IMG/VR virus record: IMGVR_UViG_2703718798_000018
DNA from: a virus
Lineage: Duplodnaviria; Heunggongvirae; Uroviricota; Caudoviricetes
Strand: one strand, 5' to 3'
Length of the DNA: 5,916 nucleotides
Shown here: positions 1 to 5,916 of the stretch, piece after piece
Position numbering within the stretch: position 1 is the first letter of the stretch
Layout: each line of letters starts with the position of its first letter
Translations under genes and position numbers: made by a program
The notes under the pieces: model-generated
What the model saw: the letters and a program-made list of their open reading frames with translations, nothing else
The model's database searches: none
What the model was told of the DNA's origin: nothing

Positions 1-252
1 TTACCATATTTCGTCACCCGCAGGGGTGGATTTACCCCAGACATCCTGCTCGCTAAGTTCCGCGGCGTTCATGTCACACTGTGCCAGCAGTTCATCAAGC
101 GAGTAGCGCCTGGAGATGGGTGTCAGAATCAGTTGGTTGTTGCTCACCTGCGCTTCCACGCTCTGCCCCGGCTGTAAGTTAAGTTCTTTCATTACGATAT
201 TGGGAATGACCATACCTGCACTGTTCCCCCATCTTTTTATGGTAATACGCAT
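1..252 (-). CDS. chpS: ChpS (ChpBI) antitoxin of the chpSB toxin-antitoxin pair, MazE-like; complete, stop codon at 1-3
   Basis: Translation from the ATG at 252 (MRITIKRWGNSAGMVIPNIVMKELNLQPGQ...DEIW, 83 aa) matches my recollection of E. coli K-12 ChpS essentially residue for residue. AAGGAG sits 6 nt upstream on the minus strand. The ORF track's 85-aa form starts at an upstream GTG (258). Not alignment-verified. Confidence 0.85.
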   Translation of the reverse strand: MRITIKRWGNSAGMVIPNIVMKELNLQPGQSVEAQVSNNQLILTPISRRYSLDELLAQCDMNAAELSEQDVWGKSTPAGDEIW

Positions 253-261
253 CTGCACCTC

Positions 262-290
262 CTTAAGTTATACAAAGTATAACTCACGGT
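262..290 (-). promoter_or_regulatory. Candidate chpSB promoter/operator: palindrome TTATACAAAGTATAA (268-282) just upstream of the chpS RBS
   Basis: Inverted repeat TTATAC-AAA-GTATAA read directly from the sequence. TA operons are typically autoregulated through palindromic operators overlapping the promoter. No experimental evidence here. Confidence 0.4.
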
Positions 291-425
291 GCTACAGGAA
301 ACGTTTTACCCCTGCGCATTTGTGAATGCCAGCAGAGTTTTTTATGCGTTAATAGATATGGAAAGCGGCTCGGAGAGAAAAGCAAAAGGTGAGGGAATTA
401 CAAAACAGAATGCGAGTCGTCTCGC

Positions 426-451
426 AAAAAACAACGCCACCCGAAGGTGGC
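426..451 (-). terminator. Candidate rho-independent terminator on the minus strand, ending either the int transcript or a host gene upstream of chpS
   Basis: Minus-strand read: GCCACC-UUCG-GGUGGC (6-bp GC-rich stem, UUCG loop; plus coords 436-451) followed by GUUGUUUUUU (426-435). A second small hairpin GCGAG-TCGT-CTCGC lies at 412-425. Confidence 0.4.
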
Positions 452-455
452 ATAA

Positions 456-490
456 GGGGGTAGCGCGTATCGCTATCCCCCTTTATATAT
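456..490 (+). other. Imperfect 10-bp GC-rich hairpin (GGGGGTAGCG / CGCTA(T)CCCCC, one bulge) followed by TTTATATAT; possible att-junction or terminator-like element
   Basis: Pairing checked base by base (456-465 with 471-481, T476 bulged). Function not assignable from sequence alone. Confidence 0.25.
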
Positions 491-541
491 CAAATAGTTA
501 CGAGTTCAAAGTAGTTCGGAATAGTGCCATTTAGTCCCCGT

Positions 542-1537
542 TTATGGGCAAAATCTGGACAACTCCGCAACCGGATTGAACCTTACCGCGTCCTGGAGAT
601 AATCAGGTGCAAAGTGCGCATAGGTCATTGTCTGCTGAATTGTGCTGTGCCCTAAAATACGCTGAAGGGTAATAATGTTCCCTCCATTTATCATGAAATG
701 AGTTGCGAATGTGTGCCGTAAAACATGCACAGACTGACCGACTGGTAAATCAGGCCGCACAGTCCTTATTGCACTTCTGACTATCGCATAACTGGGGTTC
801 ATTAATCTTCCCGTCGCTTTGACTTTAATCAGAGATTCAAGATCTTTAGCTATAGGAATAACCCGCCGCGATCCATTCTTTGTCTCCATGAAAATAACCT
901 TCCCACCAATTATGTGTTCACCTTTAATATTGGCAACTTCACCCCAGCGCCCGCCTGTAGCCAGGCTTAACAATACAGCCTTAAGATTATCGCCAGATAA
1001 AAGTGCGGTTAGCCTGGGAATATCATCATGTGCAAGATAAGCCATTTCCGGCTGATTAATTGTTAGCTTGCGTATCTCGTGAAACGGGTTATCACCCACA
1101 AACTCTTCAACATCAATCAGCTTTTCAAAGAAACCGCTCATCATTGCACAATAACGATTTACCGTTGACTGCTTAATTCCGCGATTCATTAATTCAAGGC
1201 GATATCTGATAATATTTTTTCGGGTTAAGTGGTCACTTCTGTTAATACCAAGCTCTTGCATATCACGAAGAACCGCTTCAATTCTGACCCGATTCATCGC
1301 GCCATAACGATGATTCTTACCGTGGTACACCCACCACAGTTCCAGAAGATCGCTTAACGCTTTACGTTCAATAGGTTTTTCGACCCAGTCCTTATCGTGA
1401 TAATGCGTCAGAACATGGCGTTCATACATCGCCGCTTCACCACGGGTAGGAAATCGCCGCCGAAATCTTCTTCCTTCAGATCCAGCAGGCCGCACGTCCA
1501 CACAGTATTTGCCATCAGCGAGCTTCTTAATCGACAT
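542..1537 (-). CDS. int: Tyrosine site-specific integrase, P2 Int family (331 aa)
   Basis: N-terminus MSIKKLADGKYCVDVRPAGSEGRRFRRRF and C-terminus HVLRHTFATHFMINGGNIITLQRILGHSTIQQTMTYAHFAPDYLQDA closely resemble P2 Int as I recall it, including the R/H/R/Y catalytic region. Start chosen at the ATG at 1537 with a G-rich RBS; the ORF track's start at 1573 adds 12 residues with no homology support. Confidence 0.9.
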   Translation of the reverse strand: MSIKKLADGKYCVDVRPAGSEGRRFRRRFPTRGEAAMYERHVLTHYHDKDWVEKPIERKALSDLLELWWVYHGKNHRYGAMNRVRIEAVLRDMQELGINRSDHLTRKNIIRYRLELMNRGIKQSTVNRYCAMMSGFFEKLIDVEEFVGDNPFHEIRKLTINQPEMAYLAHDDIPRLTALLSGDNLKAVLLSLATGGRWGEVANIKGEHIIGGKVIFMETKNGSRRVIPIAKDLESLIKVKATGRLMNPSYAIVRSAIRTVRPDLPVGQSVHVLRHTFATHFMINGGNIITLQRILGHSTIQQTMTYAHFAPDYLQDAVRFNPVAELSRFCP

Positions 1538-1603: not shown

Positions 1604-1903
1604 TTAACCAGTCTTCTTGCCGGAGTGGGATGATTCCGCTTCGCTTTGCCCAATGTGTGCGAGAGCCGGTACCACCTGCCCGGCCTTTGGTTCGACCTCA
1701 TCGAACAAAAACCAGTCACGGTATTTACGGAAACGAGCGTGCCGCAAAAGAAGGATCCCAAAATCAAGAGGCATCTTAGATTTCCCACTTTCATAGCCAT
1801 GATATGTATAGTAATTAATTCCAATTAAATCAGATAGTTCCTTCATTTTCATCCGTTCGGACTCTCTGATAAGTTTTAATTTCTCATTTTGCGGTATTGA
1901 CAT
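1604..1903 (-). CDS. C: Immunity repressor, P2 C-type (99 aa)
   Basis: Translation from the ATG at 1903 is 99 aa, the same length as P2 C. The C-terminal VPALAHIGQSEAESSHSGKKTG resembles the P2 C tail as I recall it. GGAGG lies 11 nt upstream on the minus strand. Position (upstream of int, same strand, divergent from cox) fits P2. Confidence 0.8.
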   Translation of the reverse strand: MSIPQNEKLKLIRESERMKMKELSDLIGINYYTYHGYESGKSKMPLDFGILLLRHARFRKYRDWFLFDEVEPKAGQVVPALAHIGQSEAESSHSGKKTG

Positions 1904-2010: not shown

Positions 2011-2436
2011 ATGCAAGAAGTCACTCAAAACGCGCCTGAATCGCCTGCCGAAACACAGTGCGATCAGTTGACAGATGCGCCAGAAACCGCACACCAAAAG
2101 ACCGGGCGCAAAGCCCCTGAACGCCAGGAAATCAGGCTTTCACAAAACCCTTCTCATCTCCTGTCAAAAGAAGGGTTTGCGATGTATATCGGCAAGACCG
2201 TTGACGCCATCGTGAGCATGGCAAAAGCAGGGAAATTACCCGCTGTGTACATGGCGGATCCCCTCAAACCTGGCGGAAACGCCGAACTTTACATCAACCG
2301 GAAAGCATGGGATGAAGCCTGCGATCGACTCACTGAAAACGCACCGCAAGAATGGCACGAATGGGAAAACCGACTTTTTTTATTTAAGCCAGCAGCTGGT
2401 TCACGGAATAAACGCATCAGTAAAAAAGCTGCGTGA
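2011..2436 (+). CDS. cox: Cox-like excisionase/early repressor with an N-terminal extension of about 50 aa (141 aa total)
   Basis: The core GFAMYIGKTVDAIVSMAKAGKLPAVYMADPLKPGGNAELYINRKAWDEA resembles P2 Cox (about 91 aa) as I recall it. Start chosen at the ATG at 2011 with GGAGG 6-7 nt upstream; the track's 1930 start is a GTG inside the promoter region. Confidence 0.6.
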   Translation: MQEVTQNAPESPAETQCDQLTDAPETAHQKTGRKAPERQEIRLSQNPSHLLSKEGFAMYIGKTVDAIVSMAKAGKLPAVYMADPLKPGGNAELYINRKAWDEACDRLTENAPQEWHEWENRLFLFKPAAGSRNKRISKKAA

Positions 2437-4883: not shown

Positions 4884-5003
4884 GTGATCATCATGCACAC
4901 ACAAAAAAACCGCTTGCCAGCGTTCGCCTGGTCGGGTTACAGTTTTCCCGCACCTCATAAAACGGGTGCCGGGATTTCCACCCCGCCGATAACCAAAGCG
5001 CAC

Positions 5004-5024
5004 AACCGCGCCAGCGGTTTTTTT
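5004..5024 (+). terminator. Candidate intrinsic terminator ending the cox-side operon
   Basis: AACCGC-GCCA-GCGGTT hairpin (6 bp, 4-nt loop) immediately followed by a run of 7 T (5018-5024), about 120 nt downstream of the 184-aa ORF stop. Confidence 0.5.
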
Positions 5025-5065
5025 GTGCGTACTGTATTGCCACGTCTTTTTCGCGTCAGAATTAT

Positions 5066-5141
5066 GGCGGGGCGTACGGGGCCGACTTCGGTCGGGCCGG
5101 GTTCTTTGGTTACCGGTTGTGGAAACCCTGTACGCCTCGCC
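5066..5141 (+). ncRNA. Candidate structured RNA element (about 76 nt): 16-bp closing helix with two G-U wobbles, enclosing a UUCG-capped hairpin and a second short hairpin
   Basis: 5066-5081 (GGCGGGGCGTACGGGG) pairs with 5126-5141 (CCCTGTACGCCTCGCC): 14 Watson-Crick pairs plus 2 G-U, possible only in a plus-strand transcript. Inside are CCGAC-UUCG-GUCGG (5082-5095) and CCGG-N12-CCGG (5097-5116). A possible promoter TTGCCA (5037-5042), 17-nt spacer, AATTAT (5060-5065) lies just upstream. Neither reading frame across it looks protein-like. Prediction only. Confidence 0.3.
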
Positions 5142-5167
5142 ACCCCGAGTTTTCCACCTCTGGATGG

Positions 5168-5184
5168 TGAGTTTTCAAAATTCA
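5168..5184. promoter_or_regulatory. Near-palindrome TGAGTTTTCAAAATTCA upstream of the 75-aa gene; candidate operator or promoter element
   Basis: 8-bp arms with one mismatch around a central C. GAGTTTTC also occurs as a direct repeat at 5147-5154 and 5170-5177. It sits 20-35 nt upstream of the AAGAGG RBS of the ORF at 5204. Confidence 0.3.
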
Positions 5185-5203
5185 CAACCAAAGAGGCCAC
5201 ACC

Positions 5204-5431
5204 ATGGCAAACCGCAAACAACAGCGCGCCCGCGCTGAGCGTCTTCACATCCGGACTGAAATCAACCGCAGACTCCATCGGGCTGCATCTGTCTCCTTCA
5301 TCATGCAGTCAAACGTATTACACCGACTTAACGACGGTATCGCTGCCGGGTATTACGCGGCAGTCTTCAGCTATCTGGCCGAAGACCTGGCAGAACTGCA
5401 AGACCTTATCAACCAGCAACACCACCACTAA
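5204..5431 (+). CDS. Hypothetical small protein (75 aa) with a highly basic N-terminus and an acidic C-terminus ending QQHHH
   Basis: ATG with AAGAGG 7 nt upstream; the N-terminus MANRKQQRARAERLHIRTEINRRLHR is strongly basic (possible nucleic-acid binding). Confidence 0.55.
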   Translation: MANRKQQRARAERLHIRTEINRRLHRAASVSFIMQSNVLHRLNDGIAAGYYAAVFSYLAEDLAELQDLINQQHHH

Positions 5432-5499
5432 ACAACATCCTGAAGCCATCCCGCACCCGTGCGCGGGAGGCTTCCGCACGTCTGTTACCGGAGGTTCTC

Positions 5500-5916
5500 A
5501 TGAAGAACGTTAAGGGACTTTCAGATATTCAGGATTTTTTTAACTGGATGTGGGCAGTGGATCCCCGGCTGGCTTCCCGCCTGAACGACTGGCACGACTA
5601 TTACCGCCGCGCCTGTAAACGGGCCGCCAGACGCGTCACCACATACGGGGATTTCTCCTTCACCGTTGACGACCGTTACCGCGTGGACGTGAAAGGTGAT
5701 GGTGATGGTTTTGGTTTATTTCACATCAACGGAACCGACAGCACCGCCATCAGCTGGTCGTCGTCAGAGATGACGCTTGTTCTGGAAATGACAACGCACA
5801 GCGTGGCCATGAAAGGCATATACACCGCAGAAGACTTTATCGGTGAATACCAGCGCCTTCTCGTGCTGTACCGCGCGGCGTTTCAGGCGGCAACTGCCGG
5901 GGAGTGCGACGCATGA
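5500..5916 (+). CDS. Hypothetical protein (138 aa); complete, stop at 5914-5916
   Basis: ATG with GGAGG 7 nt upstream; no motif recognised. Confidence 0.6.
   Translation: MKNVKGLSDIQDFFNWMWAVDPRLASRLNDWHDYYRRACKRAARRVTTYGDFSFTVDDRYRVDVKGDGDGFGLFHINGTDSTAISWSSSEMTLVLEMTTHSVAMKGIYTAEDFIGEYQRLLVLYRAAFQAATAGECDA

Follow-up and report, generated by a model that had tools for sequence, protein, structure and literature searches.

The closest described counterpart of the locus analysed here is that of phage P88 (Xuanwuvirus P88, Peduoviridae; NC_026014), whose attP core was published as the 14-bp sequence GCCACCCGAAGGTG (Chen et al. 2017, PMC5285337) and whose GenBank record starts with that core. 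In P2, the textbook case of this architecture, a 27-bp core is used at locI, near 2.165 Mb in K-12 coordinates, whereas the ytfP site described below lies near 4.448 Mb. The P2 record gives the attachment region in the order P arm Int site, IHF site, core, Cox sites, P' arm Int site; the last of these, at 24470-24496, overlaps the 3' end of int (stop at 24462) and lies 87-113 bp from the core. The consensus for P2-type arm sites is tgTGGaCa (PMC3448106).

The window, by which we mean the whole 5,916-nucleotide stretch of DNA analysed, joins Escherichia coli chromosome to phage sequence. It is almost certain that its positions 259-541 are the int-side junction (attL = B-O-P') left when a temperate P2-family phage resembling P88 entered the intrinsic terminator of ytfP at its stem-loop, through site-specific recombination by a tyrosine recombinase. 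An earlier note made from the sequence by eye had already used the name attL; with the P' arm on the side of int, that name is right by the P2 convention. The features on which the argument draws are these:

1-252, minus strand: chpS antitoxin gene; the translation is ChpS (Pfam MazE_antitoxin, E = 1.3e-11), and chpB is located past the left edge of the window.
259-301, minus strand: upstream region specific to the chpSB cassette; native host DNA, 100% identical to the empty site, with a Shine-Dalgarno sequence and an inverted repeat.
302-434, minus strand: intergenic host DNA on the downstream side of ytfP, found whether or not chpSB is there; a hairpin or terminator-like site at 411-426 is followed by TTCTGTTTTG.
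425-453, minus strand (the strand of int and ytfP): predicted intrinsic terminator, in which the core hairpin is joined by the host T-run GTTGTTTTTT.
435-451, no strand assigned: att core (O), CGCCACCCGAAGGTGGC; a perfect palindrome, GCCACC-CGAA-GGTGGC, and the stem-loop of the predicted ytfP terminator.
452-566, no strand assigned: phage P' arm of attL (B-O-P'), with a hairpin, a conserved block, TAGT repeats and candidate arm-type Int repeats.
542-1537, minus strand: int, which is read toward att and encodes a tyrosine integrase of the P2 type (331 aa); the stop codon (reverse complement TAA) is at 542-544.
1604-1903, minus strand: gene for a C-type immunity repressor (HTH), upstream of int, in the same position as P2 C and P88 C.
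2011-2436, plus strand: cox (excision directionality factor, Pc repressor), divergent from C; Pfam Phage_Cox, 1.1e-27.

Positions 1-451 of the window are 100% identical to the chromosome of the prophage-free strain E. coli EC5 (chpB-chpS-211 bp-ytfP), and host identity ends at base 451, 13 bp before the expected stop codon of ytfP. The empty site in EC5 has the order ppa / chpB-chpS / ytfP-tamB, with ytfP starting 13 bp past the end of the match. Because the 100% match to EC5 ends at 451, positions 259-451 are native chromosome and everything from 452 onward is foreign. When positions 1-700 were used as a megablast query against 5,426 complete E. coli genomes, 4,751 matched the host part. Sampled empty-site genomes ended their match at 451, or at 454 with two chance matches, and a match covering at least 80% of the query, that is, one extending past 451, was found in 13 of the 5,426. 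Sequence from 452 onward (int, C, cox and early genes) occurs in only a handful of the same genomes. The boundary, then, runs as host to 434, core at 435-451 and phage from 452.

Comparison with prophage-free E. coli genomes was the check that the earlier note had proposed, and by placing the breakpoint at base 451 it bears out most of what that note had read by eye. The 3' end of int (542-544) does lie about 290 bp from the start of chpS (252), and ytfP does precede chpS on the same strand in empty-site genomes, the order that the earlier note gives for K-12. The proposed insertion of a P2-family prophage between ytfP and chpSB is also upheld, with 1-451 contiguous with ytfP in prophage-free strains and the full-length relatives belonging to the P2 family. 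Two arrangements had been named as incompatible with that reading, and neither was found: prophage-free genomes do not have int contiguous with chpS, and chpS is not phage-borne cargo, chpSB being present without the phage. Breakpoint, core, family membership and P2-like layout are observed directly here; for the attR of the element, its completeness and its ability to excise we infer from 97-99% identical relatives, because the window contains one end only. A tRNA-type att site was considered and rejected, since no tRNA or tmRNA gene was found at or near the junction or elsewhere in the window.

Alignment of the empty site, both ends of the KY202 prophage and the window leaves a single common segment, the 17-bp sequence CGCCACCCGAAGGTGGC. 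It is found in attB of EC5, of K-12-like chromosomes and of 13E0767; in attL of the window, KY204, KY202 and Z1323; and in attR of KY202, a copy at the other prophage end such as the earlier note had advised looking for. That note had been unable to pick out an att core by eye, although the core turns out to be one of the hairpins it had itself drawn, 436-451. Positions 436-449 match the published 14-bp core of P88 exactly, and the same 14 bp occur in all eight of the E. coli lysogen junctions examined as well as in the P88 record. Where the core region of P88 reads GGTGAC, that of the window type reads GGTGGC, which makes it a perfect 16-bp palindrome.

Strain cq9, which carries a P88-type phage, bounds the exchange further. 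Its attL reads GCCACCCGAAGGTGAC against GCCCCCCGAAGGTGGC in attR, and because the mismatches between the two cores flank the 10-bp segment CCCGAAGGTG (440-449), exchange is confined to that segment; strand exchange by the phage of the window is accordingly predicted to fall within these 10 bp. The far end of the element is predicted to read ...TTTTCGC-GCCACCCGAAGGTGGC-GT(A/G)..., 13 bp after the ytfP stop codon.

The 12 bp that separate the ytfP stop codon from the core differ between attR of KY202 (CCATATGCATAC) and attB of EC5 (TAATAAAAGCAC). An extended, imperfect core or a phage-borne 3' end of ytfP was considered and rejected; because K-12-like empty sites carry the KY202 version, the difference is a host polymorphism. 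Two sharply different 12-bp alleles, GTGCTTTTATTA and GTATGCATATGG, thus adjoin the core in E. coli between identical flanks (positions 2952-2963 of locus L001 and 1452-1463 of locus L005). It is conceivable that they are a scar of past phage traffic.

Similarity to P88 extends beyond the 14-bp core. The order att-int-C-cox-DUF4761-DUF4754 is the same, and the P' arm is laid out alike: both phages have a hairpin, the block ATATATCAA(A/T)TAGTTAC and a pair of arm repeats that spans the stop codon of int. They differ in the int and C region, where DNA identity is about 76%, in the sequence of the P' hairpin stem (through compensatory changes), in the immunity repressor and in several early genes. 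Int is 80% identical to P88 Int, and Cox 84% identical to P88 Cox. A synthetic attP, composed of the KY202 P arm, the core and the P' arm of the window, was compared by BLAST with 50,697 phage records, and its att region was found in P88 only; the other matches reflect how generally the 3' end of int is conserved. Among those records, no isolated phage except P88 has the int-att region in common with the window. The attP join predicted for a phage of the window type, TTTTCGYGCCACCCGAAGGTGRCATRA, had no match in IMG/VR.

The relationship to P2 is one of layout and homology. Int is 44% identical to P2 Int over 324 aa (BLASTP, E = 2e-104), in an alignment that includes the conserved HxLRH and terminal Tyr region; it matches the Pfam families Int_N (1.1e-19) and Phage_integrase (2.9e-15), and in relatives the same 996 nt are annotated by RefSeq as phage integrase. 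As in P2, int is read toward att from the C side, and the gene order att-int-C with a divergent cox matches the P2 record. Cox, at 141 aa, is longer than the 91 aa of P2 Cox and has an N-terminal extension, and the core is a terminator hairpin, unlike that of P2. Matches of the C repressor to Pfam HTH_19 and HTH_3 are weak, both falling below the curated cutoffs. A Pe-like promoter lies at 1897-1925 (TTGACA-17-AATAAT, 11 of 12 positions matching); the early operon is on the plus strand, and the window ends before the replication endonuclease gene.

Positions 452-566, the P' arm, are absent from empty-site genomes. Nine int-side junctions were aligned, and they divide into a window-type and a P88-type lineage. 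The stem of the hairpin at 456-481 differs completely in sequence between the lineages while its pairing is kept; both sides have changed at 6 of the 15 pairs, in what are essentially two independent lineages. A further stretch, CTTT(G/A)ATATATCAA(A/T)TAGTTAC, is near-invariant across the lineages; in it, and in the conserved block CTTTATATATCAAATAGTTAC, lies a match to the IHF consensus at 488-500. This is the only exact match in the window, against 0.34 expected, a level reached by 58 of 200 shuffles and therefore not significant alone; the consensus is kept in nine of nine junctions, with one A/T difference at an unspecified position. It lies on the int side, whereas the IHF site of P2 is on the other arm, the ogr side. 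Repeats containing TAGT at 495-538 are candidate Cox boxes.

A conserved sequence, TTTATGGGCAA(A/T)ATCTGGACAACTC, spans the int stop codon, and within the 3' end of int stand the direct repeats TGGGCAA (545-551) and TGGACAA (556-562), 11 bp apart and 94-111 bp from the core. These candidate arm repeats fit the consensus tgTGGaCa, and P2 likewise has paired arm repeats 11 bp apart, its P' pair overlapping the int 3' end. The P arm of both KY202 and P88 has a pair to match, ATGGCAA(A/T)ATGTGGACAA, at a distance of about 50 bp from the core, and at least two arm-type repeats are predicted on each side of the core. TGGRCAA is a short motif, no more frequent in the window as a whole than chance would give, and the case for these repeats rests on their position, spacing and conservation.

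By analogy with P2 and with lambda-type heterobivalent integrases, Int would bind the inverted core half-sites GCCACC and GGTGGC through its core-binding and catalytic domains, and the paired arm repeats (tgTGGrCAA) on each arm through its N-terminal domain. Staggered cuts some 6-8 bp apart would be made around the loop of the palindrome and strands exchanged within CCCGAAGGTG, at exact cleavage positions that we infer from the same comparison. Cox, possibly together with IHF, would bind and bend the P' arm to direct excision.

Folding of positions 400-500 (101 nt) returns exactly three stem-loops, as the earlier note had counted, with z = -5.7 against dinucleotide shuffles. Taken singly, the hairpin at 411-426 is weak (z = -2.2, a value matched in 9 of 200 shuffles), that at 434-453 has z = -3.45 and -13.4 kcal/mol, and that at 454-485 has z = -3.98. 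A pattern scan places minus-strand terminators at 453-434 (8-bp stem and 4-nt loop, then TGTTTTTTGC) and at 426-411 (then TTCTGTTTTG), and a plus-strand terminator at 456-480 (then CTTTATATAT); terminator-like sites number four in 2.1 kb, where shuffles give 1.8 +/- 1.3. In empty sites the core hairpin starts 13 bp after the stop codon of ytfP and is followed by GTTGTTTTTT, so that on the minus strand a GC-rich stem-loop runs directly into a U-run, the rho-independent form. Core hairpin and T-run together would be the intrinsic terminator that ends the tamA-tamB-ytfP transcript, and it is this predicted ytfP terminator that is the target of the phage.

With the hairpin as core and the host T-run on the side of chpS, integration puts the predicted working terminator of ytfP behind int. 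In the lysogen the complete terminator stands 89 nt past the int stop codon, with the second host hairpin behind it, and the copy of the hairpin left after ytfP is followed by CGAAAACTGATG, with no T-run. Integration would in this way hand a working terminator to int and leave ytfP with a hairpin that lacks its U-run. It had been suggested earlier that a minus-strand terminator at the junction insulates chpSB from int read-through. A terminator there is predicted by the scan and agrees with the fold; it is host-derived, because the hairpin and host T-run come to sit behind int only on integration, and it separated ytfP from chpSB even before the phage arrived.

We think it unlikely that a core of this kind has regulatory consequences, the 3' end of the int mRNA depending on the integration state and ytfP reading into the prophage. 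If it did, C-int transcripts of the lysogen would end at the core hairpin and host U-run, and on the excised or infecting genome, which has CGAAAACUG after the hairpin, transcription would continue into the P arm. An integration-dependent int 3' end of this sort would be the mirror image of lambda sib. There too att lies between int and what follows it, so that integration and excision leave int with different 3' sequences, but here it is the integrated state that gains a canonical terminator and the excised state that has a hairpin without a T-run, and the likeness is one of analogy only. The tamAB-ytfP operon, without the U-run of its terminator, may on the same supposition read into cargo at the attR end (a hypothetical protein, the hok/gef region).

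On the other side of the junction, RefSeq places the start of chpS at the ATG at 252, with an in-frame GTG at 258, and annotates the same 252 nt as chpS at the empty site of EC5. The neighborhood is not constant in the species. About 1,600 of the 4,751 matching genomes match 302-451 only, at about 87% (megablast); in the four of these that were inspected, ppa adjoins the site and chpSB is missing. Three of the four (Z1323MEC0001, ETEC1734 and PEC148) carry the phage family at the same core. Because the same phages use the same core beside ppa, where there is no chpSB, the adjacency of the prophage to chpSB is incidental. From the alignments, chpSB is chromosomal, and the upstream region 259-434, which includes the promoter region of chpSB, is unaltered host DNA. 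The chpSB pair itself behaves as a presence/absence cassette whose right boundary precedes the start codon of chpS by about 50 bp. Directly upstream of the chpS Shine-Dalgarno sequence, in native host sequence, is a perfect inverted repeat, GTTATAC-AAA-GTATAAC (267-283), which may be the operator through which ChpS and ChpB regulate their own expression.

The variable presence of chpSB, with some 1,600 genomes matching 302-451 only and ppa adjoining in the four inspected, could be taken to mean that chpSB is phage cargo, or that int to chpS forms one mobile unit whose true junction lies beyond chpB. We give this next to no credence: chpSB stands beside ytfP without the phage in thousands of genomes, the phage occupies the same core without chpSB, and chpSB is absent from the genome of P88. 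It is very improbable, too, that the element is a P4-like satellite or phage-inducible island with a P2-type integrase. The thought arises from an integrase, 86.8% identical in DNA, that in seven genomes lies beside toprim/primase and ogr/delta-like genes, but those elements have neither the P' arm nor the int 3' end of the window, matching it at 597-1502 only, and the early gene order of the window, C-cox-DUF4761-DUF4754-derepression, is the same as that of P88, KY202 and KY204.

A decayed prophage remnant or integrated island, with the junction a fossil attL, seems unlikely. In its favour, only 5.9 kb of the element are visible, the relative at the same site in ETEC1734 is degraded, with its int truncated by an IS66 element, and KY202 has tail-fibre pseudogenes. 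Against this, the reading frames of int, C and cox are intact and match their families over the full length, and the 97-99% identical relatives are full-length prophages, about 33 kb in size, that have both copies of att. Decay would in any case alter the activity of the junction, not its identity as the attL of a P88-like prophage.

Near relatives of that prophage are found in KY204 and KY202, in each of which a prophage of about 33 kb lies between chpS and ytfP, with int-C-cox and the junction 98-99% identical to the window; KY202 matches 88% of the whole window at 97.6%. They have the complete set of P2-type genes, among them those for Cox, a replication endonuclease, a portal protein, the large and small terminase subunits, a GPO scaffold, a P2-family capsid protein and ogr. 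Such phages are infrequent: int of the window type, at 95% identity or more, is found in 5 of the 5,426 genomes and the P88 type in about 31, which makes about 36 of 5,426 (about 0.7%) for both types. An Int-based locus search among GTDB species representatives returned only integrases of at most 54% full-length identity, in other genera, which were uninformative for this att site. What the result serves is correct annotation, with the boundary fixed to the base and the prophage identified as a P88-like member of the Peduoviridae.

The attachment core is itself already known from the publication on P88, the architecture is that of P2 as given in textbooks, and RefSeq has annotated prophages nearly identical to this one. 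A literature search on ytfP or chpS combined with prophage, integration or P2-like found the site not described by gene name. That the core is the stem-loop of the ytfP terminator, and that exchange is bounded to 10 bp, seem not to be stated in the literature consulted; they are refinements, not discoveries.

Several observations concern the relatives rather than the window. ETEC1734 is a decayed occupant of the same site (L048, 1443-2798), in which an IS66-family insertion has cut short a P88-type int at its N-terminus, with another int fragment about 3 kb distant. At the attR ends of related prophages, cargo next to the P arm is variable (L003, 12166-13283; L054, 10933-11671; L004, 34928-35068) and lies directly downstream of the ytfP hairpin that has no T-run. 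A Hok/Gef toxin gene is present in all three attR ends examined, accompanied in cq9 by a yidD-like gene and in KY202 by hypothetical proteins.

The integrase with 86.8% DNA identity to window positions 597-1502 belongs to a different element (L008 and L009, 2431-3441; strains E94 and C25 and five more genomes). A toprim/primase-like gene follows it directly and an ogr/delta-like zinc-finger gene lies nearby, which suggests that the element is a P4-like satellite; int genes may be exchanged between helper-type phages and satellites. These integrases were considered as further occupants of the ytfP site and rejected, the element being a different one elsewhere in the chromosome, and their int 3' end and att arm differ from those of the window.

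Within the early operon of the window, two small RNAs stand in tandem just upstream of the derepression protein gene (5204-5431; Pfam PF25738): an isrK Hfq-binding RNA at 4950-5024 on the plus strand (Rfam, 64.3 bits, E = 1.7e-12) and, directly after it, a C4 antisense RNA at 5060-5147 on the plus strand (Rfam, 83.4 bits, E = 6e-16). The 209-aa open reading frame at 4884-5513, which overlaps both RNAs, is probably spurious; in relatives an "ash family" pseudogene is annotated there. The region looks like a C4-controlled antirepressor module of the P1/P7 type, carried in a P2-family phage.
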